Below, piece by piece: positions 9,151-52,356 of a stretch of DNA of 64,000 bases; within the stretch, counting starts at the first letter, position 1; the number at the start of each line of letters is the position of its first letter. Location: the NCBI RefSeq assembly GCF_964204645.1, contig NC_134031.1, positions 8,928,001 through 8,992,000 of the forward strand, in the 5' to 3' direction. Source of the DNA: Tubulanus polymorphus (taxonomy: Eukaryota > Animalia > Nemertea). The notes under the pieces were generated by a model. It worked only from the letters and a program-made list of their open reading frames with translations. It was not told the DNA's origin and did not search any database. A program made the translations under genes and the position numbers.

Positions 9151-12150
9151 TACTTATACTGAAGATTCGTAGCGTAGCCGTGTTGACCAGGTTTAGAATG
9201 AATAACGAGACGAGAAGTACTATATAGGTTAACTATTTATTTGATGCTTTCGCTACTCATGAATAGAAGCTTCATCAGGTGAATGTTTATACTATATCCA
9301 TTGAATTTGGATGTTGAAGGGCATCGTCATCATCATTGAGAAACAAAGGTCAAGGACTTTCGACATTAATGGGATAATGGCAACACCAGATGGTGCAACA
9401 AAACACTGGGCCATTAATCAATAAATAAATTAACATTATCTCAAAGAATGTTATCAATATGACATACTGCACATCAGTTTTCGAAATAATTGTACACCTG
9501 TTTTCGTAGTGAAAATCAGTTCATTTTCAATAAAATTTGAACTTGATCTTTAGGCTCCATAATCCGAAAAATATCAAACAAGTCATCGGATAAGATTCCG
9601 TTTCTCACTCAGTGTATGGTATTGATTTCACTGAAAACCCAGTGCCACTAGCAATCCTTATGGATTATTGCAGAATACTTACTTCCCTCAGCAGCCTTGC
9701 CGGTATCCCATTCCAACACCCATTTCCCTCCTACTGACAAAATATCAGCATTGTACCACCAAGAGCTAACAGAGAGCCAAGATCCTAAAAATGTGTATTC
9801 AAGTGCTGATTCTGCTGAACAACAATGGCTGCCAGCCCGCCATCTTGATTCTGACCGGGCAAGTTTTTGGGCAACAGATGTGTCTAAGGTAGATTCATCT
9901 ATAAACCAAATATCACAAGAAAGCGTATTGAAGAAAACTAGATTTTGTCTACAGACAAACGGAAGTAGGACACAAAAGTGAACGCAATAGCCTACTGGGA
10001 TATAAGTCCAAAGTGCCCAGTTCATGGTAAACCTACACGACATGATGCATATAGTGCCTCAAGAGCTAATAATAATTTAGATTGACTGTGTATATGATGA
10101 AAGTGAAGAACAAAAACTGAAGGAAACTCAAGCAACATATATAATATAAGAATAGATTTGAAAAAACTAGGGGCCCAGGGACACTGCACCCACTTGGGAA
10201 GTGGCTTGAAATGTTCAACAATCATATAATTTCAATATTCACTGCCCCCATGTAAAAATATAATGAAACCAATAACCTTGAAACTCGTCACGTAGAAAAT
10301 ATATCACGTTACAATTTTGCAACTGATTGTGGTATCAAAATATCCGTGTACACCAATACAATATGAAAATACGAAGTTACTTGGCTATTCAACGTCCCCC
10401 GGTGACCAATGACCTCGGTCGTAGAATATCCGTAGGTAACATTATGAATATAGTTGAACCTTGATAAAGGAAATTGGTCGGAAACATTAGACTGCAGAAT
10501 GGGAACAAACTCCAAAGTTGCTATTTCACACACCAAAAAGACTGTGGCGGCCATCTTGGATAACCTGTATATGTCAAAATCAATAATAGGGCACATCCTC
10601 CATCTATCATTAAACCACATATCAAGTAAATAGACGAGAGGTCCAAAGGTCCTATGCTCTCGAGGTCCAGTTTTTGAAATATTAATGAAAACATATTGAG
10701 GGATGAAAACGGCCCATATTGAAAAAGTCAGAAATATCTAAAAAAAAGAATTTTTTGGGGAACAAAAATCAGCAACTTTTAGCCAAAAAACTTACTTTCT
10801 TTTGGTCAAAATGTCATTAGTTTGGGCCTGAATAAAAGCCGCTTTTTGATAAGACGTCATATCAGTTTCTCCGACTCAACAGTTGTGCTAACTACCGCTG
10901 AAAACTGTCTTAAGGAGCACTCCTAACTACGGAGCGCTCCGATGTGACGCCAGCGATTGAGGTGATTAAAGCGATCGGGGCGATTAACACTGATCTCGGA
11001 AATAAAGAATATGTTAGAAAAGGTCGGAAATTCGTCTATTGTCGGAATTTTTTCATCCCTGCATATTACATTGTTAATTCTAGAGTGAGATATGGCCTAA
11101 TAGAGTCGGTTATAGTTCAAAAAGATCGACAGATATAACGGCCTTCCCAAGACTTTTCATGACCAATGTGTATCACTTTCAAAGACTTTTTAATAATTAT
11201 TGGACCGATAGTATGAGCATATGCTGTCACTGTAGCGTGTGCCAGTGTCAGACACTATCTGCTGGCCTCACGCGCGCTAACATGTGACATGGCTAGGCGC
11301 CAACTGGAATTTAAGACTGCTACTGACCCTTGGTGCAAGGTGCCTGTTCACACCAAGTGATGTAGTCTTCCGCATAATTATTCACCTTGTAAAATAAATT
11401 TATCTGGATGAATCATTGCTAAAATATAATTCAAAAATCTTTTTAATATTATTGTGATTAACCTCTATCACCATTCATCCCAATATAATCTATGCTATAA
11501 AGGAAAAACTGTCATTCTTCGTAACCAGTTTGCGCGAAATCTATTCATTGTTCGGTCATGAAACTTGGCATGTACACAGAGGAATAGATTCTCATAGTAA
11601 AGATAAAAATTTTATTTGGAACCAGAGTGTAATTTCCCCCAAATTTAAATCCCCAAAATCCCAGTAGATTCCAGAAGTCGGCAGTTTGATGGTGTGTACA
11701 AGCATGTACTGTGTTATCTGTTACTGCAGTGTTTGACCCAATTTGCACCAGATGAGATTATCACAATAACAGAATTTCACTGAGACATTTGTATCCCTAT
11801 ACAGAGCACTGCCAACCAGCCACTCCGACTCTCAGTACAGGGTGAACAAATTTCTAAACAAATATTTATTGTAAGGCATAGTAAGGATCCAGGAATAGAG
11901 GGGCATGTCGATAAAGGCCTAGACATTCTTCAGGCTTTGGGGAGAAAATGTCGCTTGAGGGGCATGTCACTCTCAGTGCTGGGTGAACAAATTGCAAAAA
12001 TATCTACTGTTATAGATCGAGGAATTGAGGGATATGTCGTGACATTGCTTGATGAGATTTAATTGTTAAAGTCAATAGGGATTTATTAGGCTAACATTTA
12101 GGGAGCCGCCCATAATTTTTTAACCCATCGAGGATGGGCATTTTTGCTTG

Positions 12151-14460
12151 TGTAACAAAATTTCATTTCTCAAGACAGATACCTCAATCCCCTTGGTTAT
12201 CAGCGACCGTGCAGAAGATACATTTCCCCTTACCTCAACTCCGGCGATAACCCGCGGCTCCTTAGTCCCGAAATTGTTCCCGGTGGTAAATAGTACCGCC
12301 GCTGTATTTATCTCGCCTTTTACACACTAAATAATTATCGAAAGTCATCATGTACGATACCGTTTGAAAGAGGATTATAAAGTCTTGACTCGGTGAAAGC
12401 ATCTACTAATGTCATCGTTTTTTTAGGCGACACGAGTTGTAGTTTGGTAGATGAACCGATTTCGCCGGTTTGTTTACTTCCGGTCCGGCCACATGATCCG
12501 CTCGATAAGCGGGAGAGTTAAAGTTTCTACGATGACGTCTTGTTACTGTCACCATAACATATCACCTTAGTATTTAGTCACATAAATTAAGTTCTTAGAT
12601 AATTATCATTATTACAAATCTAGAAGATGATTTCGGCACCTTCGTGCCTTAAAGCTTATGAGTATTCGACGGTTAAACCTGCGATCTCGAACGCGGTCAC
12701 GCATGACGACAGCCTTTCGGGACCTCACTTGTCTTTACGACCGAACTATCTGACACGAATTTCATATCATCGGAAAGTACAAGTTCCAACCTTTTTAATG
12801 GTATATTACTTCGATAAGAAGACAACGTAGTTCAGCAGCAAAGCGGCTCGGAAGAATCCTAGGAAGCACATCCGACGGGGCGGCCATTGTTGAGCGACCA
12901 GTGAAGCGACGCGGAGTGAAGATGCAACACATCGGAGTCGGCAATATCAGAATATAAGGCGCGCAGTTTTTCTCTTTCAGTTAGTTACTCGGAGAACGTC
13001 TTTAAGATGTAAGTCGGTCCGGGACAGCGCCGCTTGGCGGCGTTTCGGGTCTTGTACCCGTTCGTCTCTGTTCCTTCTTTCTGAGTTAGAAATTAAGGGC
13101 CTTAGGCCCACAGAATCCCCCTTACTGTAAATACGTTACTAGTCTTGAGTATTACTCTTTGTTAAGCATTAAGCTACGGCAAAATCATAGTACGATTTCC
13201 TCACCTATGGCCATAAGCCATTGGGCATTACGTTTACCGTCCATACTTATGTATTATTGACGGGCCCTGTGTTTCTCGTTTGTCCTTAGGATCGTTGAAC
13301 TATATATAATCCGTCAATACTTATGTATTAGGTATGGATTCTTGATACCAGGCCTTGGGTTCTTGCGTTTCTCCCCGTTTATACTTAAGTATATAGAGAC
13401 GGGTTTGACCATTACTTGTGCTTATAGCTTTATCAAACTATTATTCTGCCTTCATGTATGTGTGATATAGGTCCTTAAGACCAGCTTTCAAGCTGCGTAT
13501 CTTTAAGTTTCAATAAATTTTATATAGGTATAATGTTCGCGGTCTATATGTTCGTTGTATAAGTTTGAAGCGTAACAGCATGTGTCAATCGCATTATCTT
13601 TTCCCTTTGTAAGTATGTAAGCATTTGTGGAGTATGAACCTGTCTTGTATTTGAGCATGACGTATGTCGGTTTCTGATAGACGAATAAAAGCTGCTGTCG
13701 CAGCACGTAATGGTATTAACGATTTAGTAATAGATGTTGGGTAGTAAAACCGTGGAGTTGGTCGGAGCGTCCATGGTCTGTATAGAGGCTTACTCTCGGA
13801 AATGGTAGAGTCCAGCGGAACGTAGTGCAATCCCGTTCGGGTGACGGGCGGTTTCTGTTTATTCCGCTATCCAATTTAGGCTCAAGCGAGGAAATTCCAC
13901 GTCGGGGGTGGGTGACGTGGTGTGTGATACGGTCGATTCGGGTTCATGTATAACTACGAGGTCGTATGTTATTGGGTGAACAGAAGGGTGCGCATCGCTA
14001 TCTGTAGGTTCTAACATAGGGTTGGGCCCGATCCTTAGTTCCCGGAGGATAGTTTTCGAATCGACCCAGTCGTTACGTTCCTGGATCTATCAGCAATCTA
14101 CACCCGGGGTTGCGGGAATTGCTTACTCGTGTGCTAGGTCGAGTTAAGCCTGAGAGTCATTTATTATTCTACACACAAACATAACTTCCTGTGGTGGTCG
14201 TAGACCCCTTCATAAACATCTTTCCCGTTGTTTACGTGACACAGGCGGACCCTTTGTAGCGGCGCCATTTTACATACATCTATTACATAAGTACACATTT
14301 ACATATATACACTCTGAGGACATATAAGAGGATCACGCTACCGCTATGATCGACTCTGGTGCGAGTGAGTGCACACACTCGCCCGGTGAGTATTTTCAGG
14401 TACTATGTGGATGAAGAAACATGCTAAATTCTTAATGTATTCTAACTACGAAACGCTACA
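12151..14460 (+). repeat. 5' LTR (2310 bp)
   Basis: TG...CA termini, followed after 4 nt by the PBS. About 7 differences from the 3' LTR seen by eye. Confidence 0.96.
12953..13014 (+). promoter_or_regulatory. Putative LTR core promoter (TATA plus Inr), short exon 1 and major splice donor
   Basis: TATAAG at 12953-12958; TCAGTT and TTAGTT initiator-like motifs at 12977-12986, 26-30 nt downstream; AAGAT|GTAAGT with a perfect donor at 13009-13014. Duplicated in the 3' LTR (20908-20969). Confidence 0.65.
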
Positions 14461-14464
14461 AAAT

Positions 14465-14482
14465 TGGTGGCAGCGGTGGGAT
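14465..14482 (+). promoter_or_regulatory. Primer binding site complementary to the tRNA-Leu 3' end
   Basis: TGGTGGCAGCGGTGGGAT is the reverse complement of ...ATCCCACCGCTGCCA-CCA, the 3' end of animal tRNA-Leu(AAG/TAG). It lies directly after the 5' LTR. Confidence 0.92.
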
Positions 14483-14666
14483 AATAAATGTGCCATCTAC
14501 ATCAGAACTACCAGTGTTGTAAATGGTCATGCTCAGTACGTTTAGGTTACTCATGCTTACATACTCCTTTTATCGTTTACAGTCCCTTCCCTAAGGTAGT
14601 GAGTCTGTCATTCCTTTGCATTATCTAATGGTTTGATTTTTCTTGTATCAGAATTCCGTTGCTGTG

Positions 14667-15749
14667 ATGGCTAGTGAAGCGTCTAAACGTCCTAATACGC
14701 GAGGTCTGAAGAGGACACCGGCAGTGTCCCGAAGTAGAAGTCACGATGCTGCAATGCGTGACGGCGAACTTTCTCTACCCGGCGATAGCCTTGGGGTCGG
14801 CAGTACCGACCGTGGTCGGAGCAATAATAGTCCCCTGTCCGTGCATTTTGATACCGGGGATAATACGAATATCCCGGTATCATTCCCTTTGCAGTCCCCC
14901 TTGCATTCTTTCCCTTCTAATAGCGACGGTGGAGATAATGCCTCTACGTCGTTTAGTCGGCAGGATCGTGATTCTTTCTCTCTTGGTCGGCCTCAGTTCC
15001 GTGCGGTAGAGCCCGAGTCATATTCTGGTGAAGGTGTATGGGAGGACTACCTCCAGGTTTTCATTACCGCATCCGAGGTGAATCAATGGAACGATTCTAT
15101 GAAGGCGGCTATGCTTTTCACTCATCTTAAGGGCGCGGCTCGTCAGCTGGCTTGTTCCTTACCTTTCTCCGACCAGAGGGATTTTTCGCGTCTTGTACAG
15201 GCTTTGCATAACAGATTCGGAGCTAGCAATCAATCGGAGCTCTATCTGGCTGAAATACGTAATCGTAAACGTCGTAGGAACGAGTCCCTTCGTGAGCTCG
15301 GCCAGGCACTTATAACCCTTTCTAACCGTGCATATCCAGGTATGGATATGTTGCAACGTGACCGACTTTTGCGGACACACTTTCTTGATGCATTGGATGA
15401 TAGTGATCTTAGAATGAAGCTCTTCATGAGCAAATGTCAGTCCTTAGATGAGCTCATTATTCTTGCAGTGGAGCTTGAGGGATATGCTAAGTTGGAGCAA
15501 GAACGATTAACTGGGGGAAGGGTATTTGTTAAGAACGTAACCGGCAGGGAAAATGAGTCTACGGAGTTAGACCAGCTACGGGGGCAAGTAGCTGATTTGA
15601 CCAAGGCTGTATCCAAGCTTTCCATACCCAATGCTGGACCTCGTGATCTTTCTACCGTTCGTTGTTTTAATTGCGATCGGATGGGCCATTTCAGACGTAA
15701 TTGTCCTGATAGGTCGGGAAACTTCCGTCAGCGGGTCAAGCGGGAGTAA
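14667..15749 (+). CDS. gag: Gag polyprotein (360 aa)
   Basis: First ATG in strong context (GTGATGG) at 14667; retrotransposon capsid-like core (WEDYLQVF...NQWND...LKGAA); zinc knuckle CFNCDRMGHFRRNC. Confidence 0.95.
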   Translation: MASEASKRPNTRGLKRTPAVSRSRSHDAAMRDGELSLPGDSLGVGSTDRGRSNNSPLSVHFDTGDNTNIPVSFPLQSPLHSFPSNSDGGDNASTSFSRQDRDSFSLGRPQFRAVEPESYSGEGVWEDYLQVFITASEVNQWNDSMKAAMLFTHLKGAARQLACSLPFSDQRDFSRLVQALHNRFGASNQSELYLAEIRNRKRRRNESLRELGQALITLSNRAYPGMDMLQRDRLLRTHFLDALDDSDLRMKLFMSKCQSLDELIILAVELEGYAKLEQERLTGGRVFVKNVTGRENESTELDQLRGQVADLTKAVSKLSIPNAGPRDLSTVRCFNCDRMGHFRRNCPDRSGNFRQRVKRE

Positions 15750-15763
15750 GCCCTGCTGCTGAC
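15716..15763 (+). promoter_or_regulatory. -1 programmed ribosomal frameshift signal (gag to pol)
   Basis: Slippery heptamer G GGA AAC (15716-15722) in the gag frame. The -1 frame is open into the protease. Downstream stem GTCAGC/GCTGAC with inner AGCGGG/CCTGCT (15727-15763). Confidence 0.85.
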
Positions 15764-16249
15764 TTATCTCCCACTACACAAATGCACGAGACAGAGAAAC
15801 CCATAGTAAAAGATTCTTTGAGACTTCCTATAATAGTCGAAGGTGTTAAACTCAATTGCCTTGTGGACACTGGAGCATCAGTGTCTATCCTAAATCATAA
15901 CTGCTATTACCGGCTGGGTGAACATACGTCTTCGCCCCCCTTGTCGGATACTTCATTAAACCTCCTAACAGCTAATAAAACTCCCATTCGCTCGTTAGGC
16001 CACACGAATGTTGAAGTAAAGCTGTTCCAAAAACCTGTACATTGGAAATTCGTGGTCGCAGATATCAGTGAAGATGTCATTTTAGGCATGGATTTCCTAT
16101 CCTTCTTTGACTGTCAGATCTTTCCTAAACGCCGGACCCTCATATGTGGCAATGAGCAACTTCATGCAAAATCTCCCAGTAACGGAGCTTGTCTCAATAT
16201 TGTTTCCTCTTGTCAGAGAGTAGTTATAGGCCCCCTTCGGAAGCGTTAA
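15716..16249 (+). CDS. pol: Pol N-terminal part: aspartic protease
   Basis: LVDTGASVSIL active site and ILGMDFL motif; reached by the -1 frameshift. Confidence 0.93.
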   Translation, partial: GKLPSAGQAGVSPAADLSPTTQMHETEKPIVKDSLRLPIIVEGVKLNCLVDTGASVSILNHNCYYRLGEHTSSPPLSDTSLNLLTANKTPIRSLGHTNVEVKLFQKPVHWKFVVADISEDVILGMDFLSFFDCQIFPKRRTLICGNEQLHAKSPSNGACLNIVSSCQRVVIGPLRKR

Positions 16250-19200
16250 TCGCGGGCGTGGCTATGGATATCGAAGCCTATAGCAAGTGGGCATTAGTCG
16301 AACCTCGCATTTCTAGTAATATCACTGACGGTCTGATGGTTGCCCGCTGCCTTGTGGATACCGAAACTCATGCAATTCCCGTTCGAGTGTTCAACTCAAC
16401 GGACCATCCAGTCACCGTCCCCCAGGGTTGTTCTATTGCTTCCATGGTCTCAATTGCGAGTCTCGATGACGCTCCGTCAGACGAAGACGTACCTGACTCT
16501 TCAGATTCGCATTCAGTTAATCATATCAATTGCAACACCCCTGATTACCTTACAGATCTAATTGAACGCAGTTCTGAAGGATTCAATGATAAAGACGCTG
16601 CGAAGATTCGCGAGTTGATTTCAAATTATTCGGACATATTCGTCCAATACGATATGGATCTTGGTACCGCTAAGGGTATAAAGCATACTATCGACGTTGG
16701 TAATGCTCGTCCCGTTAGACAGCGACCCCGTCGTCTGCCCCAGGTAAAACAAGACGAGGCTGATCGTCAAGTTAAAGAAATGCTCGAAAAAGGGGTCATA
16801 GAGCCATCCACCAGTCCTTGGGCAAGTCCCGTCGTCTTAGTTACCAAGAAAGACGGCAGTACCCGTTTCTGTATAGATTACCGAAGATTAAATGAAGTCA
16901 CGCTAAAAGACGCGTATCCCCTTCCTCGCATTGACGATTCTCTGAGATCCCTCCACGGTGCCAAGTATTTCTGTGTTATGGATTTAGCTAGTGGTTATTG
17001 GCAGGTCGAGCTCGACGAAGATGCGAAGGAAAAATCGGCGTTCGTGATGAGAAATGGCTTGTATCAGTTTAAGAAAATGCCTTTCGGCCTATGTAACGCA
17101 AGCGCCACGTTCGAACGCCTTATGGAGAACGTCCTATCCTCGTTGCAATACGAAATCTGTCTGGTTTATCTAGACGACGTGATAGTTTTTGGCTCGTCCC
17201 TTGATGCCACGTTAGAAAACCTTGGACGGGTATTTGAGCGCTTCCGCTTGTCTGGGTTAAAGTTAAAGCCTAAGAAGTGTCATTTCTTTCGAGCGTCGGT
17301 CCAATACTTAGGCCATATCGTCTCCGAAGCTGGCGTTTCTTGCGATCCCGAAAAATTGAGAGCAGTGAGCGAGTGGCCTATTCCACGTACAGTCACAGGA
17401 GTCCGCTCTTTCATGGGTCTCGCATCGTATTACAGGTCTTTCTGTCCGAACTTTGCAGCCGTAGCTAAACCCCTCCATCGTCTCACCGAGAAGGGTAGAG
17501 AGTTCCTTTGGACTGCTGAGTGTCAACGAGCGTTTGAAACTTTGAAGTCGCTGCTCACTACATCCCCTGTACTAGCCTATCCTGATCTGAGAATTCCTTT
17601 TATCCTTGACACTGATGCAAGTGATACGGGCATCGGTGGTGTTCTTTCTCAGGTACACGCTGGTAGTGAAAGAGTCATAGCTTATGCCAGTCGTTCGTTG
17701 TCTAAAGAACAACGCAATTATTGCGTAACCAGGAGAGAATTATTAGCCGTTGTCACGTTTGTCAAATATTTTCGACATTATCTATGGGGTACTCGCTTTA
17801 CTTTGCGAACTGACCACGGATCCCTTAGGTGGCTTACCTCCTTTAAAGAACCCGAAGGCCAAGTAGCTCGGTGGATAGCCGTCCTTAGCACGTACGATTA
17901 TGAACTCCTTCACCGCCCCGGGCGAAACCACGGAAATGCCGACGCGTTATCACGTCAGAACTGTTCGCAGTGTCGTAGGATTGAGCATAAGAGTAGATCG
18001 CCCGCACCCTCTGACGATGTAGGCGTTAATACTATCGGCAGTGTCACTACCACGATAGGTTTCTCTCTACTTCCGCATTGGTCAAAAAAAGAGTTAGCGT
18101 CCGCTCAGCGCTGTGACCCGGAGTTCCGATGGATACTTCGCAAGTTGAAAGATAAGGTCCGCCCTACTCACGAAGAGTCTGCTTCTAAGGGCCCGTTTGA
18201 CCGTTTCTATTCTACCCGTTGGGAGAACCTCCGTTTCGTGGATGGTTTGCTTCACATCATTAAGCACAGGGAAGGTCTCTCCGATTCGACTATCCTACTT
18301 TTACCGAAGCAGTTTCGACAGGAGGTGCTCGAACATTTTCACGGCCACCTTGTTCGTGGGCACTTTGGCGTCAAGCGCACATTGACCGCAATACACGGCA
18401 GGTACTTTTGGTACGATATAAAGAGCGATGTCGCCGTTTGGTGCAGAAATTGTGAGTTGTGTCTCTCCCGGAAAAGTCCTACTCGGCCAAATCACGGTCC
18501 TCTACAGTCCTCGGTAGTTGGGTTCCCTATGCAAAAAGTTGCCATGGACATCGTTGGTAATTTCCCTAGAACTAGCCGTGGTAATATCGCCATACTTGTC
18601 GTAGCTGACTACTTCACTAAGTGGGTGGAGGCATATCCTATCGCCAACAAGGAAGCTGTCACGATAGCCGAAATTCTTACCCGTGAATTCTTCCCCCGTT
18701 TTGGAATACCTGATCAATTACATTCCGATCAGGGTAGCAACTTCTTGTCTAAAATCATGAAGGAGGTATGCGAACTCCTCCGCATAAGGCAAACCCGTAC
18801 TAGTCCTTATCACCCGCAATCCGACGGTCTCGTCGAGCCATTCCATCGCACATTAGTATCGGAGCTTTCTCTAGTAATTGAAGAAAGTCAAGATGATTGG
18901 GATCTGCAGCTTCCGTTCGTAACTATGGCTTATCGAGCCTCCAGGCACGATGCTACTGGTTTCACTCCTAACTTTCTTATGTTGGGTCGTGAGCTCCCTG
19001 CGCCTTTGGATCTTTTATCCGGAAGATCGTTGTCTCTTGCACAAGAACAAACTTCTTATGCCCGTGAACTCCGCGAGCGTATTTCCACCGCTTATGACCG
19101 CAATCGGAACTCCTTAGGTCGACGTATAGTCTTCATGAAAAACCAGTATGACAAAAAGGCTCGAGGACACCCTTTTCGTGTCGATCAGTTAGTTTGGTTA

Positions 19201-19482
19201 CATCAACCCGCCGTGCCTCTCGGTAAATCTCCGAAACTTTGGAAGCATTGGGTTGGTCCTTGTACTATCGTCCAAGTCCTTAATGGCGTAACTTATCGTA
19301 TCCGGTTGCCTAATGCCTCTGAGAAAGTGGTTCACTTCGATCGTCTCAAAATCCATCCTTGTCCGGATGAGGTCATTTCCCCTTCAGTCCCTCGTGCGAT
19401 TGACACTGCTAATCCTCATGTAGCAACGAAAACTCGTAGTGGAAGGGTCGTACACCGTCCCGTTCGATATTCGTGTACTTAA
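16189..19482 (+). CDS. pol: Pol: reverse transcriptase, RNase H, integrase (frame break relative to the protease near 16235)
   Basis: RT (WASPVVLV, RFCIDYRRLN, MPFGL, YLDD); RNase H (TDASDTGIG, ELLAVV, TDH, ADALSR); integrase (HH...CxxC, D-D-E core, GPCTI, C-terminal TRSGR). Confidence 0.97.
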   Translation: MSQYCFLLSESSYRPPSEALIAGVAMDIEAYSKWALVEPRISSNITDGLMVARCLVDTETHAIPVRVFNSTDHPVTVPQGCSIASMVSIASLDDAPSDEDVPDSSDSHSVNHINCNTPDYLTDLIERSSEGFNDKDAAKIRELISNYSDIFVQYDMDLGTAKGIKHTIDVGNARPVRQRPRRLPQVKQDEADRQVKEMLEKGVIEPSTSPWASPVVLVTKKDGSTRFCIDYRRLNEVTLKDAYPLPRIDDSLRSLHGAKYFCVMDLASGYWQVELDEDAKEKSAFVMRNGLYQFKKMPFGLCNASATFERLMENVLSSLQYEICLVYLDDVIVFGSSLDATLENLGRVFERFRLSGLKLKPKKCHFFRASVQYLGHIVSEAGVSCDPEKLRAVSEWPIPRTVTGVRSFMGLASYYRSFCPNFAAVAKPLHRLTEKGREFLWTAECQRAFETLKSLLTTSPVLAYPDLRIPFILDTDASDTGIGGVLSQVHAGSERVIAYASRSLSKEQRNYCVTRRELLAVVTFVKYFRHYLWGTRFTLRTDHGSLRWLTSFKEPEGQVARWIAVLSTYDYELLHRPGRNHGNADALSRQNCSQCRRIEHKSRSPAPSDDVGVNTIGSVTTTIGFSLLPHWSKKELASAQRCDPEFRWILRKLKDKVRPTHEESASKGPFDRFYSTRWENLRFVDGLLHIIKHREGLSDSTILLLPKQFRQEVLEHFHGHLVRGHFGVKRTLTAIHGRYFWYDIKSDVAVWCRNCELCLSRKSPTRPNHGPLQSSVVGFPMQKVAMDIVGNFPRTSRGNIAILVVADYFTKWVEAYPIANKEAVTIAEILTREFFPRFGIPDQLHSDQGSNFLSKIMKEVCELLRIRQTRTSPYHPQSDGLVEPFHRTLVSELSLVIEESQDDWDLQLPFVTMAYRASRHDATGFTPNFLMLGRELPAPLDLLSGRSLSLAQEQTSYARELRERISTAYDRNRNSLGRRIVFMKNQYDKKARGHPFRVDQLVWLHQPAVPLGKSPKLWKHWVGPCTIVQVLNGVTYRIRLPNASEKVVHFDRLKIHPCPDEVISPSVPRAIDTANPHVATKTRSGRVVHRPVRYSCT

Positions 19483-19510
19483 CTCTTAACCCTTTCTTTT
19501 GTCTTCGCAG

Positions 19511-19937
19511 GCCTACGTGTAAAGTATGTGAAGGGGTTTTCCCCGCCTCTGCTATCGAGTCACACATGATGAAGTACCATAATAGCTCGGCGATCGAGGC
19601 ACCCGTTAGAGCCACTCCCTCTACCAGTAAATTGGATCTCATCTTGTCACAGGTCACCGAGGCTGGAGCGGGAGGCGAACCAGCGCCGAAACTTATCACA
19701 GTAAAAAAACGGAAGCGGGTCCCCGTTTTACCTCCTCGTTTCCCGCCTAAAGAGCCAATCGTCCTTTCACCAAACGCAACGAGACGGGATGCTTCAACAC
19801 AGACGGACGCCCCCGCCAATAGAGAGTATGTGCTATTGCACGAACACCTGGGTGTGAAGTATCTCGGCTACGCCGGGGATGCGGTTGACTGTGCGCAATG
19901 CCGCGTATACCTCGCACAGAACAAACATTTGTTGTAA
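19511..19937 (+). CDS. ORF3: putative spliced accessory zinc-finger protein (142 aa if AT at 13007-13008 is joined to G at 19511)
   Basis: Open frame between the pol stop and the PPT with no ATG ahead of the finger. Preceded by branch point CTTAAC, a pyrimidine tract and CAG (19485-19510). Encodes CKVC-x11-H-x4-H, KKRKR, DASTQTD and HEH...CAQC. No signal peptide or TM helix. AATAAATAAA follows the stop. Confidence 0.75.
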
Positions 19938-20093
19938 CCAATAAATAAACGCTGAATTTGACAAAATAATAGTAATTCCTTATTCTTCTTCCGAGGTATT
20001 ATCCGTCTTCAACGTTCGACTCAATTTGGAAATCTGTTGATCACCTCCCCTTGAGAAAATTTTGTTGCTATATTGTTCGACCTTGTTCGGTCT

Positions 20094-20103
20094 GGCAGGG
20101 GGG
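20094..20103 (+). promoter_or_regulatory. Polypurine tract
   Basis: GGCAGGGGGG, 2 nt upstream of the 3' LTR. Confidence 0.85.
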
Positions 20104-20105
20104 TG

Positions 20106-22414
20106 TGTAACAAAATTTCATTTCTCAAGACAGATACCTCTATCCCCTTAGTTATCAACGACCGTGCAGAAGATACATTTCCCCTTACCTCAACTCCGGC
20201 GATAACCCGCGGCTCCTTAGTCCCGAAATTGTTCCCGGTGGTAAATAGTACCGCCGCTGTATTTATCTCGCCTTTTACACACTAAATAATTATCGAAAGT
20301 CATCATGTACGATACCGTTTGAAAGAGGATTATAAAGTCTTGACTCGGTGAAAGCATCTACTAATGTCATCGTTTTTTTAGGCGACACGAGTTGTAGTTT
20401 GGTAGATGAACCGATTTCGCCGGTTTGTTTACTTCCGGTCCGGCCACATGATCCGCTCGATAAGCGGGAGAGTTAAAGTTTCTACGATGACGTCTTGTTA
20501 CTGTCACCATAACATATCACCTTAGTATTTAGTCACATAAATTAAGTTCTTAGATAATTATCATTATTACAAATCTAGAAGATGATTTCGGCACCTTCGT
20601 GCCTTAAAGCTTATGAGTATTCGACGGTTAAACCTGCGATCTCGAACGCGGTCACGCATGACGACAGCCTTTCGGGACCTCACTTGTCTTTACGACCGAA
20701 CTATCTGACACGAATTTCATATCATCGGAAAGTACAAGTTCCAACCTTTTTAATGGTATATTACTTCGATAAGAAGACAACGTAGTTCAGCAGCAAAGCG
20801 GCTCGGAAGAATCCTAGGAAGCACATCCGACGGGGCGGCCATTGTTGAGCGACCAGTGAAGCGACGCGGAGTGAAGATGCAACACATCGGAGTCGGCAAT
20901 ATCAGAATATAAGGCGCGCAGTTTTTCTCTTTCAGTTAGTTACTCGGAGAACGTCTTTAAGATGTAAGTCGGTCCGGGACAGCGCCGCCTGGCGGCGTTT
21001 CGGGTCTTGTACCCGTTCGTCTCTGTTCCTTCTTTCTGAGTTAGAAATTAAGGGCCTTAGGCCCACAGAATCCCCCTTACTGTAAATACGTTACTAGTCT
21101 TGAGTATTACTCTTTGTTAAGCATTAAGCTACGGCAAAATCATAGTACGATTTCCTCACCTATGGCCATAAGCCATTGGGCATTACGTTTACCGTCCATA
21201 CTTATGTATTATTGACGGGCCCTGTGTTTCTCGTTTGTCCTTAGGATCGTTGAACTATATATAATCCGTCAATACTTATGTATTAGGTATGGATTCTTGA
21301 TACCAGGCCTTGGGTTCTTGCGTTTCTCCCCGTTTATACTTAAGTATATAGAGACGGGTTTGACCATTACTTGTGCTTATAGCTTTATCAAACTATTATT
21401 CTGCCTTCATGTATGTGTGATATAGGTCCTTAAGACCAGCTTTCAGGCGCGTATCTTTAAGTTTCAATAAATTTTATATAGGTATAATGTTCGCGGTCTA
21501 TATGTTCGTTGTATAAGTTTGAAGCGTAACAGCATGTGTCAATCGCATTATCTTTTCCCTTTGTAAGTATGTAAGCATTTGTGGAGTATGAACCTGTCTT
21601 GTATTTGAGCATGACGTATGTCGGTTTCTGATAGACGAATAAAAGCTGCTGTCGCAGCACGTAATGGTATTAACGATTTAGTAATAGATGTTGGGTAGTA
21701 AAACCGTGGAGTTGGTCGGAGCGTCCATGGTCTGTATAGAGGCTTACTCTCGGAAATGGTAGAGTCCAGCGGAACGTAGTGCAATCCCGTTCGGGTGACG
21801 GGCGGTTTCTGTTTATTCCGCTATCCAATTTAGGCTCAAGCGAGGAAATTCCACGTCGGGGGTGGGTGACGTGGTGTGTGATACGGTCGATTCGGGTTCA
21901 TGTATAACTACGAGGTCGTATGTTATTGGGTGAACAGAAGGGTGCGCATCGCTATCTGTAGGTTCTAACATAGGGTTGGGCCCGATCCTTAGTTCCCGGA
22001 GGATAGTTTTCGAATCGACCCAGTCGTTACGTTCCTGGATCTATCAGCAATCTACACCCGGGGTTGCGGGAATTGCTTACTCGTGTGCTAGGTCGAGTTA
22101 AGCCTGAGAGTCATTTATTATTCTACACACAAACATAACTTCCTGTGGTGGTCGTAGACCCCTTCATAAACATCTTTCCCGTTGTTTACGTGACACAGGC
22201 GGACCCTTTGTAGCGGCGCCATTTTACATACATCTATTACATAAGTACACCTTTACATATATACACTCTGAGGACATATAAGAGGATCACGCTACCGCTA
22301 TGATCGACTCTGGTGCGAGTGAGTGCACACACTCGCCCGGTGAGTATTTTCAGGTACTATGTGGATGAAGAAACATGCTAAATTCTTAATGTATTCTAAC
22401 TACGAAACGCTACA
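20106..22414 (+). repeat. 3' LTR (2309 bp)
   Basis: Copy of 12151-14460 with one 1-nt indel, preceded by a purine tract. Confidence 0.96.
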
Positions 22415-23151
22415 CTAATGTGAAATAATCTTGAATACAAAGTTCCCGGAACTATTTTTGCAGCGTATTTAACCCCATTTATCGGATCGTTTATTAATTC
22501 AATGACTGTAAAACTGGTGTGCTTCGGTTCGCGGTAAACATATACACCATGATGCCGACATGCCACTAATAGCTCTCTCATTCCTCGAGAGCTAAAAATT
22601 GGTAAAAAATTGTAGACTGTAGAGCGGGAACAAACATCAAAATGGCTATCTTACACATCAAAATGACTGTGGTGGCCATCTTGGATGACCTACATATGTC
22701 AAAAACAATAGGGCTCATCCTCCTCACACCTAAAACAAACATACCAAGTTACAAGAAAATCAACCAAAAAGATAAGCACGTAGAGCGGGAACAACATCTG
22801 CATGCCGCCCACCCAACTGCCCAGCTGGACTGATGGACTCAGGCGACAATACCCCTCCCCTCGCGTCCCACGGCCGAGGGGCAAAACTGTGTAAAAAGTG
22901 CTGATTTCAGCTAACAAAAATGGCCACCAGTCAGCCGTGATTCTCAATGGGCCAGTTTTTAGGCTTAAGATATGTCGAGGGTAGAAACATAGCTAAAAGT
23001 CAAATATCAAGATGTTGAAGCATCCACAAAACTTCCAAAAATATCTGGATTCCATATACACGTGACTGATGAAAGTGAACGCAATAGCCAGCTAGGACAT
23101 AAAGCCTCAAGTGGGCTAATTGTGAAAATAACACATTCACATTCATAAGTT

Positions 23152-27520: not shown

Positions 27521-29542
27521 TTTCAAAATAATAAATTCTATCAGTATAATTTAATTCGAAGTGTGGGATTTCTTCATTTATTCGAAGTTCCATTGCACCC
27601 ATAGGCGTGCAGCAAAACGCGTAATTCTAAAACGCATACTTGTCCCTAACGAGTGTCAAACACATTTGGAACTAAACGAAAATGAATAACAGAACGCGGT
27701 GCGAACAATATAAAAGTAAAAGTTCAGTTTTTTCCAAGGCTGTACTGTACTAAAGAATTTCAAAACAGGGAGATGTTGATTTCTATACAGAATTTTGTCA
27801 TCTTGTAGCCCAAATCGAAAACTTGTAGCCCAAATCAAACGGAACGCCTCATCTTGGAATAAGTTGGTCTAACTAGTGGAGTCACGCAAGGTAGTATCCT
27901 AAGTCGTCTTCTGTTTAATGTCCTGACAGATGACATACACAGTGATCCAAAATATACCAGACCGAGTAAATTTCCAAAACGACCTTAACACTGTTCGACC
28001 AAAAAACTTAAGGTTCCGACAAGAAAATCTTGTTCGAATGAAAATAATTGTGTTTGATCGAACAATACGCTTTTTGTTTGAACCAAAACTTTTCTTCATT
28101 CTGACAAAAAATGTGTTCGAATAAAAAGCTATGTTATTGTTGAAATGAAAAACTTTTTGTCCCGGCAAAAAAATTTGGTTGTGCGAAAACAATTTTTTCG
28201 AACGAATGTTTGAATGAAAACAATTGTTCGATTGAACGAAATACTTAATACTTTTGGTTCGGAGAAAAAACTTTTTACAATATACTAGATATATGAGTTG
28301 ATATATGAGTTTCTTACGACCACCACGAATTGATCACAGACCGACCATACACTGAAATGCAAGGATAGAACAAGTTCTATTTTCAAGGCAATCGGCGAAA
28401 AGTTTTGCATCACATGACTTTGAGACTCGGCGATGATCGAGTCATAGTAGACCTGAGTGCTCTTTAAGATCCAGAGACAAACTAATTGCAATCAGCATTC
28501 ACATGTGTACTACCGCTGTTCTTACGACGATCTAGTTGGTGGTAAGTGTAAGATGATCTGAGATTGGCTTCAGAATATGAGCCTGCTTGCAGTTTATTGT
28601 GTAATACTGGCAAAAACCGTCGTTTCAAGTGTCTCCATTTCTAATGCATGCTCGTCAGAGAAAGTCAGGAAATGGAATGAGTGTGCAGGTGTCATGACAT
28701 GTGCGTTCAGATGCATGAACATTTGCGGTGCAGTTTGTTTGGTCGTCCTTCATAGCATAGATAATCTTATGTATACATTTATTAAATCAAGTGACTTATC
28801 CAAATAAATTAATTCAATGCATCATGATTCATATCATATATATTTCTCTCTTTTTATTAAATCAATAAATCAGAGTTTCATAAGTTAAGTTGACTATTTT
28901 GAACTAAAATCTGTGGAACTGGATCAGTGTAAAGCGTTCTTCATTTTTTGTCAATAATGGGGAACCGGCACACCAGCTATCCCGTCAGATGATGCCACCG
29001 AGATATCAGATGCACTCGATCAAAATTAGTTCATTTTCAAGTAACTTTGATCTCAATTTTCAGTCTTCCAATCCAACTAAGGGTCCAGGGACACCATGCC
29101 CACTGAGAAAGTGGTTTCAACAATCTAACAATTTCAATATTCAATGCCCCCTGGTGACCATACACAAAAATCAATAATCTTGAAACTCATTACAATCATA
29201 GAAAATGTAGCAACTACAATTTTGCAATTGATTTTGATAACAATAAATGCCTTGGTACCAATATAATATGGAAATACTAAGTTATCCCACTATTCCACGT
29301 CCCCTGGTGACCATATGCAAACCCCAATGACCTTGAAACTCACTACAATCATAGAACATGTCATGAGCTACAATTTTGCAATTGGTTGTGGTAACAATAA
29401 ATGCCTCGGTACCAATATAATATGGAAAGTTTTTCAACTATTCAACATCCCCTGGTGACCATATAGAATAACAAATGACCTTGAAACTCACCCCAATCAT
29501 AGACCATGTCATGAGCTACAACTTTGCAATTGACTGTGGTAA

Positions 29543-30594
29543 GGCATAAAATAAAAAATTCTTTGTTTCCGGTCCCACTTGTATGATTTTTATGGGTAGG
29601 TAGGAATGGAATCAAAAAAGAAATTTTTCTGGGTGTTCAACACATCAAAGTAGTATGTCCAGAAAGTCCAAAAGCATGTACAGTAGACCGTCAGTCGACT
29701 ATCGGATTGTTATTGGTTGCAATCACGATGCGATTGATACAATATGATTTGGCAAAAGAAATTGAAATAATGAGTGCGATTGAAATAGATAAAATTCTCT
29801 ATCAAACAACAAACTTGATTAAATTAATCGTTATTTACTATTCTTTTTGGGAACAAGCTTGATACCTTTAAACTCTTTGTTGCCTGTTCGTCATGATTAG
29901 GTTTTTCATGCTTATAAATTCCTCTAAATCCATAAAAACATCGCCCAAAATCATCGCAACCTAGCTCCTGTCAAACATCTGTCAACAGCCACCAGAGTAA
30001 ATCACACTAATTACAGCCAAGAACCGATGCGGCTAAAAAGGAGGTCGTGTTTACAAATATTTTCAATTTCAATTCGATTTGTTTTTTTCTCTCATTATGA
30101 CCTAATAAATAAAGCAAAATAATGAACTGATACTTAAATAAATTATCTTAGATCGGCCTATTGTCAAAAGATTGCACACTGCAAGCATCGTTATTGATAT
30201 TTTTACAGCAGTGTGTGCTGTTGTAAAGTAAGGCGCCTGAGAGTGTAGGTTGTTCCCCCGGTGACAGCCAGCTGATCAATGTATTGTACTGCACTGCATG
30301 CTTGTGGGAAGCACAGCCACGTGTATCTCAGTTCACACTAGCGGCAAACACACTTAGCGTGTCAACTGGCAGAACTTTCTACGATGTTTTTAAATCAAGA
30401 AGTCACGTATTATGACAATTCCAATATGAACACAAAAAAGGTTTTACATCAAAAATGATTTTTTGCTTTTAATTTTTCACTGGCCGGATAAAAATTTTAT
30501 CTTTTTTTACTAAACTTCCATAAAAATGTTTGGGTCGGCACCTTTTTGATTGGGTCGGTCGGGGGACTGGAAACAAAGACTTTTAATTCATGCC
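29543..30594. mobile_element. PIF/Harbinger-like MITE
   Basis: ~35-bp imperfect TIRs (GGCATAAAATAAAAAATTCTTTGTTTCCGGTCCC / GGGACTGGAAACAAAGACTTTTAATTCATGCC); TAA TSD; interrupts one 150-bp unit. Confidence 0.8.
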
Positions 30595-31657
30595 TAACAA
30601 AATATGCATAGGTACGAATATAATATCGAAATGCTAAGTTATTGTATTATTCAATGCCCCCTGGTGGCCATATATAAAAACCAATGACCTTGAAACTCAC
30701 CACAATCATAGAACATGTTATGAGCTACAGCTTGGCAATTGATTGTGGTAACACAATATGCTTAGGTACCAATATAATGCGGAAAAACATTTTTCCACCT
30801 ACGAATGAGTACTGATGACACCAAGATGGCCACCAATTGCATAATAATTGGCTGATCAAAAATACCTGTCTCAGTGATTTAAGATCCCTTTCCATAGAAT
30901 AGCCACCATAAATTTCAATGAAAGATGACAAACCAATAGGAAGCTACACGACTCAGAATTCGGGCAAAAATTGACATTTTTGGGTATAAAAAAGGTCACA
31001 CAGGACAGCCATCCTGAGTCCGATCGACCCAATTTCGCTTAAGCTGATGGGCCCTTGGGGGATACAAATAAATGTGAAAGATCAAGATAATTGATCAAAG
31101 CGTCTTCAAAATTTCCCTTGAAAACTTTAACAAGAAATTCTAAAAATGGGCTTGCTGGCATGGCTGCCCTGAAAGCTTGCTTAGTGGTTTTGTATTTCTG
31201 TAGTAGAATTCATCAAACTATGAACTGTTTACTTTTTGAAGAGCGAAGAGTTCGGTGTTGTCTTACATCGTTACATGAAATTTTACACACGGGACTGGGG
31301 ATCGAAATGATTTTATTGTAGACGCGGACAAAGTTAGTACAAGCTTTTGGATAGTTGTTATTTGAATATTGAAGTGTCTTAACGAAATCTATCATGTTAT
31401 CATGTTGATAATTGCTAGATTAGTTGTCAGATTGTGTTGAAATGATTTTGCTAGAATAAATTTACAGCTGAAAGAAACTAGGGGTCCAGGGACATGGGCA
31501 TGGTTTCAAATGCTCTAACAATTTCAATATTCAACGCCCCCTGGTGACCATATACAAAAACCAAAGACCTTGAAACTAACCACAATCATAGAACATGTCA
31601 GCAGCTACGATTTTGTAATCGATTGTGATAACAAAATATGCCTCGTTACCAATTTAA

Positions 31658-32222
31658 CACGTTCACAGCCACCTAGTGGTTTAACGTCCGGTCGCCATTG
31701 CCAACGCTAATTTTTTACATTATACAATTTATATACTGCCAGCACTATTTGTACATTGATAGATAAATACACTGATCTATTTTAGTGTAAAAAACCAATG
31801 ACGAGATAACTCGTCACTGGCACTGGTGAAGAGATTCTCAATTTTTTCTTGTCCCCATTGCCAGTGAAAAGCGTGAAAAATCGAATAAAAATCTAAAAGA
31901 ATAAAAGTTTTATTTTAAAAATGATATAGAATGATTTTAGTCGTTATATTCTCTCTTAATATTGGCCGGAAAAGAAGCTAAAATGCATTGCTTTCTGAAG
32001 ATTTTTTAGAAAAAATTTCAAGTGTGCACCAGACTTGAGTTACCCCCATAAATAATATCTTAGTCTCTCCATACTGCCAGACAATTATTATCTGGTTTCT
32101 CGCCTCTGCCAGGTCATTCATAACGCTGTAAAATGACATTGAATCGATGACGATATAACTCGTCATGGCAAACTGCGGCGCACCCACCATGAAGATTTAG
32201 CTCGTCAGCGGCAGCGAACGTG
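31658..32222. mobile_element. piggyBac-like MITE
   Basis: TTAA|CACGTTC...GAACGTG|TTAA inside a 150-bp unit. Confidence 0.85.
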
Positions 32223-33492
32223 TTAATATGGAAATACTAAGTTATTCTACTATTTAATGCCCCCTGGTGACCATATTTAAAACCCAATAACCTTGTTACT
32301 CACCATAATCATAGACCATGTCATGAGCTACAACTTGATTGTGGTAAGAAAATATGCATTGGAACATATTTTGTTATCATGACCAATTGCAAAGTTGTAG
32401 CTCATAAAATGTTCAATGATTATGGTGAGTTTCAAGGTCATTGGGCTTCGCATATGGTCACCAGGGGGTGTTGAATAGTAGAATAACTTAATTCAAGTTA
32501 TGCTACTATTCAACGCCCCCTGGTGACCATATTCAAAACCTAATGTCCTTGACTCACCACAATCATGGTCATGAGCTACAACTTTGCAATTGGTCATGAT
32601 AACAAAATATGCCTAGGTACCAATCTAATAAGGAAATACTAAGTTAGTCTACTATTCAACGCCCCCTAGTGACCAAATAGAAAAACTAATGTCCTTGAAA
32701 CTCACCACAATCATAGACGATGTCATGAGCTACAACTTTGCAATTGATTGTGGTAACATAACATGCATTGGTACAAATATGATATAGAAATACTAAGATA
32801 TTGTATTATTCAACGCCCCCTGGTGGCTATATACAAAAACCAATGACCTTGAAACTCAACACAATCATAGAACACGTTATAAGCTATAACTTTCTACTTC
32901 ATTGTGGTTACAATATATGCTTAGGTATCAATATAATGTCAAAAACTTTTTCCCAACTACGAATGAGTACTGATGACACCAAAATGGCCACCAATTGCGC
33001 CATAATTGGCTGATCAAAAATACCTGTCCCGGGTATAAAACATCCCTTTCCAAAGAATACCCATCAGCAATTGCAATGAGAAATGGCAAACCAGTAGGAA
33101 GCTACAGGACTTCTAGCCATCTTGAGTCCGATCGACCCAATTTTTGTTATGCTGACGGGCCCTGGGGGGATACAAATATATACGAAGCATCGAGGTAATT
33201 GATCAAAGCGTCTTCAAAATTTCCCTCAAGTTCAAAAACGTGTAAAAAGTGCTGATTTTGGTGAACAACAATGGCTGCCAGTCTTGAATCTGAGAGGGCC
33301 AGTTTTTGGGCTGAAGATGTGTCTAGGGTAGATACATGTGTAACCCAAATATCAAGACATTACATTGAAGCGTCTTCAAAACTTCCCAAAATAACTGGAT
33401 TCCGTCTATGGACGGACGGACGGATGGACGACGGACGAAAAGCAATAGCCCGCTGGGACTCGAGTGACTTCAGGTGAAGAGAAGCGAACACA

Positions 33493-50182: not shown

Positions 50183-52356
50183 TTATAATTTCGGAAGAGT
50201 ATCCAGATAGTTAAATAATAATAAGAACGCAACTATCACAATCTTCATGATGATAATGAGTTTATTTACATGTTCAAACGTTTCGATCGATTTCGACTCA
50301 TCTCTTCGAGTCCTTTTCAAGAAATGACATGAAAAGATACAAACTATGTATAGTATACAGTTACTAATTACAGAGAATATCATGCAGGCGTGAAGTGGCC
50401 TAGTTTACAAAGTACAATTGGATTATAAACATATCAAAATACGTTCAGTAAAAATGAGACACCATGTGTGAAGAGTTATTTGTTAATACTTGGTTTTTTG
50501 GATTTTATATATAATGCCTCTTTGAAGGTGATTTCAAAGTCATTTTTTCCAGAATCAACGATTGAAAAGTTGTTTTTTAAAGAAAAATTTGATGCACAAT
50601 TTTTACATGATGTTAAATGTTCCTTAATTGCTGAAGGCGAAGTTCCATGCTCCTTTACCCTTGTGGCCAAATGTCGCATTGTTTTACCAATGTATGTGTT
50701 ATTTGCATCACGCAAACATTTGAATTTATAAATTACATTGGCCAACAAGGGTGAAGGAGTATGGGACTTGAGTGAAAAGTAGTTCCTAATTTTGAAAGAA
50801 GTAAAGACAATACGAATATCCACGTTGTAATATTGTTTGAATAGACTCTTGAGTTTTCTGCTAAATATAATTGAAGGGAGGCCTATGTAAGGAACGAAAA
50901 AAGTGTTTCGACCTAATCTTCCCTGACCATACTAGCGGGAGTATCATCACTACATTTACTATTCAAAAATCTTCTAAGACACGAATTAAACAAATCTTGT
51001 GGGTAGCCATTTTTGTGGAAAACGTTTTTTAGGAAATCAATTTCTTGTGAGAAAACAAACTAGTGTAAGTTGATTTTCTAAATACATGAGAAGTGAAGGT
51101 TGACGATGGCGCGAAACTTTTCCCTGAACAATCATCTAGCTTATTTTGAATCTAAGCTGCTAGATGATTGTTCAGGGAAAAGTTTCGCGCCATCGTTATA
51201 CCTACGTTATGTTGATGATATTTTCTGTGTATTCAGACGTGATTCAATACATGCATCTTTCCTGGAGAAACTAAATGCACTACACCCAAATCTTAAATTT
51301 ACTTCAGAAATAGGACCGTCTACACTTCCATTTCTAGATACGTATATTTCGCTCCCAACAACGGATGATGGTACCTTCACTTCTCATGTATTTAGAAAAT
51401 CTACTTACACTAGCTTGATTCTAAACTTTTCAGATATGTGTCCGCAAAAATGGAAATTTGGCTTAATCCAATGTCTGCTCCATAGAGCATATACCATAAG
51501 CAATAGTTGGTTTGTTTTCTCACAAGAAATTGATTTCCTAAAAAACGTTTTCCACAAAAATGGCTACCCACAAGATTTGTTTAATTCGTGTCTTAGAAGA
51601 TTTTTGAATAGTAAATGTAGTGATGATACTCCCGCTAGTATGGTCAGGGAAGATAAGGTCCAAACACTTTTTTTCGTTCCTTACATAGGCCTCCCTTCAA
51701 TTATATTTAGCAGAAAACTCAAGAGTCTATTCAAACAATATTACAACGTGGATATTCGTATTGTCTTTACTTCTTTCAAAATTAGGAACTACTTTTCACT
51801 CAAGTCCCATACTCCTTCACCCTTGTTGGCCAATGTAATTTATAAATTCAAATGTTTGCGTGATGCAAATAACACATACATTGGTAAAACAATGCGACAT
51901 TTGGCCACAAGGGTAAAGGAGCATGGAACTTCGCCTTCAGCAATTAAGGAACATTTAACATCATGTAAAAATTGTGCATCAAATTTTTCTTTAAAAAACA
52001 ACTTTTCAATCGTTGATTCTGGAAAAAATGACTTTGAAATCACCATCAAAGAGGCATTATAAATAAAATCCAAAAAACCAAGTATTAACAAACAACTCTT
52101 CACACATGGTGTCTCATTTTTACTGAACGTATTTTTATATGTTTATAATCCAATTGTACTTTGTAAACTAGGCCACTTCACGCCTGCATGATATTCTCTG
52201 TAATTAGTAACAGTATACTATACATAGTTTGTATCTTTTCATGTCATTTCTTGAAAAGGACTCGAAGAGATGAGTCGAAATTGATCGAAACGTTTGAACA
52301 TGTAAATAAACTCATTATCATCATGAAGATTGTGATAGTTGCGTTCTTATTATTAT
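50183..52356 (+). mobile_element. 5'-truncated Penelope-like element with an inverted partial copy upstream
   Basis: About 50215-51060 is the reverse complement of about 51510-52356; RT plus GIY-YIG ORF; flanked by TCACACTATT at 50173-50182 and 52357-52366 (candidate TSD). Confidence 0.92.
51100..52062 (+). pseudogene. Penelope-like RT C-terminal half plus GIY-YIG endonuclease
   Basis: YLRYVDDIF, LPFLD, VIYKFKC...YIGKT.RHL.TRVKEH. Truncated at the 5' end; premature TAA where the inverted copy reads TAT (EALYIK). Confidence 0.93.

Follow-up and report, generated by a model that had tools for sequence, protein, structure and literature searches.

Organization of the locus

The window analysed here is a 64,000-nucleotide (64-kb) stretch of the genome of the nemertean Tubulanus polymorphus (contig NC_134031.1, positions 8,928,001 to 8,992,000 of the forward strand), and the subject of this report is a 10.3-kb mobile element within it, together with ORF3, the small open reading frame (ORF) that follows pol. 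With its direct long terminal repeats (LTRs), primer-binding site (PBS) and polypurine tract (PPT), and with gag preceding protease, reverse transcriptase (RT), RNase H and integrase in that order, the element is a Ty3/Gypsy LTR retrotransposon. An earlier note on this DNA had claimed that the start codon of ORF3 is assembled by splicing, two of its bases coming from the 5' LTR and the third from an exon just behind pol. The features on which this prediction turns are listed below by their position in the window.

12151..14460, forward strand: 5' LTR, 2310 nucleotides (nt), TG...CA, 99.7% identical to the 3' LTR (7 differences)
12953..12986, forward strand: TATA box and initiator (Inr)-like sites, the presumed transcription start
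12979..13008, forward strand: predicted first exon, about 30 nt long, with AT at its 3' end
13009..13014, forward strand: splice donor GTAAGT, 26-30 nt behind the Inr-like site
14667..15749, forward strand: gag with a CCHC knuckle (Pfam)
15713..19482, forward strand: pro-pol, encoding protease, RT, RNase H and integrase (Pfam)
19478..19510, forward strand: two branch-point-like copies of CTTAAC, a pyrimidine tract and the acceptor AG
19511..19937, forward strand: ORF3 exon, a G followed by 141 codons
20106..22414, forward strand: 3' LTR, carrying a second copy of the donor at 20964

Predicted splice junction and start codon of ORF3

In the 5' LTR, TATAAG at 12953 is followed by Inr-like sites (TCAGTT/TTAGTT) with an A at 12979 or 12983, and the predicted exon ends in AT at 13007-13008 with an A at -3 (13004). 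Left unspliced, positions 13007-13012 read ATG-TAA, a start codon directly followed by a stop. At the far end of the predicted intron, one CTTAAC (19478) overlaps the pol stop and the other lies at 19485, and behind the acceptor AG at 19509-19510 comes G CCT ACG TGT, in frame with ORF3. Joining 13009 to 19510 would yield a 142-residue protein that begins with Met-Pro-Thr-Cys, and the codon so formed is the first ATG downstream of the presumed start. An AU at the end of the donor exon and a G at the head of the acceptor exon, in the frame of the downstream gene, is the layout of a springer-type split start codon, and the sequence here has it. Every base cited in the earlier note for the donor behind the LTR promoter and for the acceptor just past the pol stop is present, and the joined ATG holds in frame, position and context, the start site being presumed. 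That ORF3 has no ATG of its own ahead of the finger also proved correct. Its frame is open from 19440 to 19937, the first in-frame ATG (19566) lies inside the finger, and there is an out-of-frame ATG-TGA at 19526.

Splice sites were scored with a generic, self-made matrix not trained on the host. By this measure, no other of the 410 AG dinucleotides in the element scores as high as the acceptor at 19510, which also comes first among the 6845 on the two strands of the window; 300 shuffled versions of the element never reached its score. Among the 515 GT dinucleotides of the element, the donor at 13009 stands fourth, and it is joint first of 476 on the six intronic bases. Among the 30 best donors, it is the top scorer that yields an ATG-led ORF3 and the sole one without an upstream ATG. 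Random pairs of GT and AG drawn from the element produce AT|G in the ORF3 frame at a rate of 0.4-0.9%, a post hoc figure that refers to one chosen pair.

The ORF3 protein and its constraint

Several motifs can be recognized along ORF3 and directly behind it.

19518..19580, forward strand: N-terminal finger C-x2-C-x11-H-x4-H, the only such motif in the 1189 ORFs of the window
19704..19718, forward strand: KKRKR, a candidate nuclear localisation signal (motif only)
19797..19805, forward strand: TQT motif (motif only), absent from six related ORF3s; we take it to be a candidate LC8/dynein-light-chain site
19839..19901, forward strand: H-x-H ... C-x2-C, a possible second metal site, frame-shifted in some contigs
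19940..19949, forward strand: two overlapping AATAAA, immediately 3' of the ORF3 stop and 5' of the PPT

No Pfam family matches ORF3 above its cut-off, the best being a sub-threshold zf-WRNIP1_ubi (UBZ-type) at E=0.2, and the classical C2H2 pattern (PF00096; C-x2-C-x12-H-x3/4-H) is not matched by the x11/x4 spacing of the finger. A word-index search, a search of 1.84 billion representatives and an exact look-up from the internal ATG returned no homolog. The top Atlas match (0.90) is unnamed and of low recognition, viral contigs hold no relative, and prokaryote genomes gave one irrelevant weak match. A single-sequence AlphaFold model (pLDDT 50, pTM 0.24) was uninformative and was not used. An errantivirus envelope, which would carry a signal peptide and a transmembrane anchor, was considered for ORF3 and ruled out. 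Its 141 codons match no env family, and the maximum 19-residue Kyte-Doolittle hydropathy is 0.54, which leaves no hydrophobic segment.

Evidence that ORF3 is constrained comes from three sequencing runs with assembled contigs (X1, X2 and X3), whose long flanks and empty-site joint suggest DNA. No contig of these runs contains a 13008/19511 joint, and a fourth run, X4, gave no aligned contig; neither result is informative about the splice. Aligning their contigs on 19420-19990 revealed a sister subfamily that differs from ORF3 at 85 positions over 495 nt, with three gaps and the frame kept; two of the gaps compensate each other within 5 nt and one lies behind the stop. The count by codon position drew on 40 of the 93 difference rows, from which six were dropped: one intronic row from another contig, three that X2 alone shows, next to the compensating gaps, one common to all contigs, and one private to the main contig of X3. 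The remaining 34 fall mostly on third positions (27, against six first and one second; p=5e-8), a bias in line with the selection on ORF3 for which the earlier note proposed a test. ORF3 is thereby supported as a real gene. Of the listed differences, four precede the first in-frame ATG; read by eye, three of them are silent, so the part of ORF3 without an ATG is constrained as well. Since constraint extends upstream of 19566, translation should start upstream, where no ATG exists.

Two further kinds of contig bear on the boundary of the exon. A variant found in X1 and X3 has 4+1 extra bases in the stretch that separates the pol stop from the acceptor, evidence against read-through from pol or a Pol-ORF3 fusion. 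In addition, two contigs align at 80% or more only over 19502-19543 (42 nt, 4 differences), that is, over the acceptor and the first codons.

Related Gypsy loci

A metagenome scan covering 5 of the 64 parts of the collection confirmed 566 loci, of which 80 were kept, and 41 of these have the integrase end plus at least 500 nt behind it. An ORF with a CxxC...H...H/C pattern follows pol in six of the 41. One of them, L018, was dropped from the count because its finger belongs to the gag of a tandem unit. The remaining five (L004, L006, L008, L016 and L017) all fall among the 17 loci with RT identity of at least 48%, with none among the 24 below that value. In L022, a related CxxC-led ORF was missed by the pattern. 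A quick tree, composed of unnamed loci and database hits only and holding no named reference elements, scatters the finger-ORF3 loci over a 29-row group (SH-aLRT 86); L004, L008, L016 and L017 group together, and L006, L022 and the studied element stand apart.

A good acceptor lies 1-20 nt 5' of the ORF3 ATG in four of six related ORF3s, where the local chance is 2-7.5%. In other words, this part of the Gypsy tree shows repeated cases of an acceptor before a finger-led ORF3, and a split ATG has so far been seen only in the studied element. Of the AT|GT and AG|G conservation that the earlier note proposed to look for in relatives, the split codon does not extend this far out, its place being taken by an ATG of the ORF's own. 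The ORF3 of L008 has 23 database relatives; the finger is present in 14 of them, and Met-Pro stands within 10 residues before the Cys in 13. The x11/x4 spacing is common to the 14 finger relatives, L004, L008 and the studied ORF3, and it occurs in one of the 1189 window ORFs and only twice in 612 kb of loci. Compared with the studied ORF3, the L004 and L008 proteins and these 23 relatives are alike in their place behind pol, the acceptor just upstream, the Met-Pro start and the C-x2-C-x11-H-x4-H finger. They differ in having their own ATG, in their length (mostly 400-620 amino acids) and in a second conserved domain that is absent from the studied ORF3, and profile similarity to it is not significant. 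Place and spacing suggest common descent of the studied ORF3 with the related fingers.

As to the members themselves, the family with the N-terminal finger and the second domain comprises L008:6767-8137, L004:3415-4320 and P0133-P0155, most of them without any Pfam family. The ORF3 at L006:5961-7208 has two N-terminal fingers, one above the PF00096 cut-off, and a PLDLS sequence that we take to be a CtBP motif. Behind pol at L007:4559-4954 lies a Cys-rich ORF, which presumably resembles a PHD finger.

Additional RNA-processing signals in the element

Apart from the donor and acceptor discussed so far, the region between the promoter and gag holds other candidate sites.

13270..13337, forward strand: candidate optional 42-nt exon with acceptor 13289 and donor 13332, stop-free and in ORF3 phase
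13512..13689, forward strand: two AATAAA in the LTR (13512 and 13684), 500-680 nt 3' of the donor
14630..14651, forward strand: candidate gag acceptor AG, then A, 15 nt 5' of the gag ATG; rank 7/410; creates no ATG

Since the AATAAA sequences of the LTR lie downstream of the donor, the donor would fall in the R region and be repeated at 20964. Both ends of the candidate optional exon score well (acceptor 13289, followed by G, ranks second of 410, and donor 13332 ranks eighth of 515). Used alone, acceptor 13289 leads into a 60-codon hydrophobic frame. Near the LTR end there is a cluster of donor-like sequences at 14359-14400, of which 14386 has the highest donor score of all, and a possible 16-nt micro-exon occupies 14583-14598 (in 14583-14604); none of these donors, nor the micro-exon, yields an ATG-led ORF3. 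Between the presumed start and the gag ATG there are 30 ATGs. A good gag acceptor is found in one of ten relatives with a clear gag start (L001), with three further relatives unclear.

Comparison with known systems

A split AUG for env has been described in Drosophila errantiviruses of the springer subclade (Senti et al., bioRxiv 10.1101/2023.08.03.551782). The likeness is a start codon divided over a splice junction; the cargo in springer is an F-type envelope glycoprotein, in contrast to a soluble finger protein of 142 residues in the studied element. For the cargo, the nearer parallel is CERV, the nuclear non-env product of a spliced Caenorhabditis elegans Cer1 mRNA, which is required for export of the unspliced genomic RNA (Sun et al. 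2023, PMC10309623). Like CERV, the studied ORF3 is non-env, has a basic candidate nuclear localisation signal and a Cys-rich finger, and is predicted to derive from a spliced LTR-retrotransposon mRNA. CERV, as described there, has 517 amino acids, five exons, an N-terminal half in common with Gag, a C4-type loop and a function established by mutants, whereas ORF3, compared by description only, has two predicted exons, a C2H2-type finger and no Gag part. Gag sharing of the CERV kind would not result from the best donor, 13009; the weak donor at 15746 would provide it. By analogy, then, the studied element may make its start codon as springer env does and probably carries a cargo like that of CERV, and it is a member of neither family.

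Two other systems are relevant. LTR elements of bdelloid rotifers have non-env ORF3s behind pol, and spliced messages are stated to be the usual source of such proteins (Rodriguez et al. 2017, PMC5408684); these are of GDSL esterase, DEDDy exonuclease, coiled-coil or transmembrane types, and the terms "zinc finger" and "start codon" are absent from the text of PMC5408684. In foamy virus, the major splice donor lies inside the LTR, 5' of the poly(A) signal, and in both LTRs (Schrom et al. 2013, PMC3694450). Foamy virus is a retrovirus for which U1-mediated poly(A) suppression has been established, and for the studied element it could serve as an analogy only.

The element of surprise in the earlier note was therefore overstated, as a split AUG (springer-subclade env) and a spliced non-env regulator (Cer1) are each already known on their own. 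Their combination, and the class of zinc-finger ORF3s, were not found in the literature searched. No description of a zinc-finger ORF3 in animal Gypsy elements was found there either, most subscription papers and Repbase/Dfam lying outside the scope of that search. Passages of PMC13524379, PMC8220671 and PMC6338049 contained nothing relevant. If both the splice and the nuclear role are true, CERV is no nematode oddity, and animal Gypsy elements would more widely encode Rev- or Tas-like regulators; gene callers would overlook such regulators, since their start codon is absent from the DNA. The means by which retroelements send intron-containing genomic RNA out of the nucleus, and keep RNA for translation apart from RNA for packaging, are an open question, on which a product of 142 residues with a single predicted junction would offer a compact handle.

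Proposed mechanism and alternatives

The favoured reading is that transcription starts near 12979, that donor 13009 is joined to acceptor 19510, and that the result is expression of a real non-env gene. From the sequence, the probability of this reading is put at roughly two in three (0.68). The splice would remove a 6.5-kb intron with the PBS, gag and pol, leaving the LTR exon to supply the AU and the ORF3 exon the G of the start codon. The RNA may then end through the AATAAA pair behind the ORF3 stop, which would make the mRNA some 0.5 kb long and leave it without the site for priming reverse transcription. Because the unspliced ATG runs into TAA, ORF3 output would depend on splicing. The protein is predicted to be nuclear and to act on the element's own expression, and it is from motifs only that we infer a nuclear regulator. 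Thus, of the claimed spliced mRNA for a non-env regulator, a constrained non-env gene behind the top acceptor is found, and the word regulator derives from the motifs. Since the genomic RNA amounts to one large retained 6.5-kb intron, a Rev- or CERV-like role in governing export, or the balance of spliced to unspliced RNA, is tentatively preferred by analogy; transcriptional activation or anti-silencing would be about as likely a role.

The same donor could also serve gag. Joined to acceptor 14651, it would leave no ATG ahead of that of gag. A donor lying about 30 nt into the RNA could then give rise to three pools: the genomic RNA left unspliced, in which the first AUG forms a start-stop; a gag-pol mRNA that uses acceptor 14651 and has no PBS; and the 0.5-kb regulator mRNA, with an AUG made by splicing and a separate poly(A) signal. 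That these three pools exist in the studied family, and that the element represents an undescribed "complex" animal Gypsy group with nuclear zinc-finger regulators behind pol, is a doubtful proposition at present.

Several observations weigh against the favoured reading. The exonic part of donor 13009 (GAT) is poor, three donors score higher, and other donors in ORF3 phase are available at 15746 (gag end), 18402 (pol), 13454/13456 and 13617. Each of the three runs contains contigs in which 75 nt over the TATA box and donor (20900-20976 or the 5' copy) are skipped or replaced. Within ORF3, 53 of the 93 difference rows fall outside the codon count and could include a stop, and a 5-nt insertion near 19853 shifts the last codons in the deepest ORF3 contig of X1 (depth 65.7 of 97.8) and X2 (43.7 of 66.3). 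Among the relatives, all six ORF3s have an ATG of their own, those of L016 and L017 have no good acceptor, and L004 and L008 do not count as independent because they are sisters in the tree. Profiles built from the related fingers also miss the studied ORF3, placing it outside the top 12 and the top 7 of the 1189 window ORFs.

In a rival reading, acceptor 19510 is reached from another donor, giving a Gag-ORF3 (15746) or Pol-ORF3 (18402) fusion, and the LTR donor serves gag splicing or poly(A) suppression. The donors at 15746 (GTAAGC, overlapping the gag stop) and 18402 are both in ORF3 phase and give an open, ATG-led frame. Gag-led spliced products are reported for idefix env (10.1101/2023.08.03.551782) and CERV (PMC10309623), and in foamy virus the donor ahead of the LTR poly(A) signal represses polyadenylation in the 5' LTR without any splicing (PMC3694450). 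However, the fusion donors score 1.2 and 2.4 against 3.8 for the LTR donor and have 30-57 upstream ATGs, and the related ORF3s are free-standing, with Met-Pro shortly before the Cys, much like the AT|G start. Fusion is therefore considered unlikely.

ORF3 might also be expressed without any splice from the LTR, either from a promoter within the end of pol, with a near-cognate codon (ACG 19515 or GTG 19473) or ATG 19566 as the start, or by ribosomes that come from pol and reinitiate or shift frame. The finger ORF3s of L016 and L017 would fit such expression, the near-cognate codons are in frame, and CCCTTTC at 19490 conforms to a slippery pattern, though it lies behind the pol stop; the accessory gene of the plant element Grande is reportedly transcribed from its own promoter, to go by the title of a paper. 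Yet this leaves unexplained why the best acceptor of the window stands two codons ahead of the first Cys. With a start at 19566 the finger would be truncated, even though the codons upstream of that ATG are constrained, and the 4+1 insertion disrupts the frame on the way from the pol stop to the acceptor; together these points make this route improbable. Least credible is that ORF3 is a decaying captured fragment and that AT|G is coincidental, the LTR donor being a strong one and the acceptor a leftover. The lack of homologs among the 1.84 billion representatives, the frame-shifted and deleted derivatives common in the runs and the uninformative single-sequence fold are compatible with decay; the third-position bias, the finger-led ORF3s that relatives carry at the same place and an acceptor far above background make it very unlikely.

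Structure and age of the element and other features of the window

Three further features complete the element.

14465..14482, forward strand: PBS, within the predicted intron, an identical 18-mer occurring in L022; presumably of tRNA-Leu type
15716..15722, forward strand: slippery site GGGAAAC, inside the gag/pro overlap
20094..20103, forward strand: PPT

In this copy, the protease frame (15713-16249) and the RT frame (16183-19482) are out of register near 16.2 kb. No Pfam match at E<=1 places a chromodomain, the mark of a chromovirus, at the integrase C-terminus. Pol matches with names are few and come from arachnids, lancelet and fish, so the element is described as an animal Gypsy and its clade is left unnamed. 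The GC content of the flanks is 33-40%. One X1 contig contains the empty-site joint 12146/22415, and the insertion is therefore young and not fixed. The 4-nt flanks (12147-12150 and 22415-22418) are identical at 2/4 positions only. The 5' flank ends in TG, the same dinucleotide that occupies 20104-20105 between the PPT and the 3' LTR, as if integration had retained an unprocessed cDNA end. Internally deleted derivatives, with most of pol and ORF3 gone, join 16558 to 19942 in X1 and 16545 to 19696 in X2.

Elsewhere in the window, ORFs at 50214-52357 lie inside inverted repeats of 689 nt and 164 nt that are 99% complementary; we take these ORFs to be of Penelope-like RT/GIY-YIG type. A dispersed family of tandem repeats of about 154 nt, with many diverged copies, occupies 29100-33300, 56850-57270 and 59800-60250.

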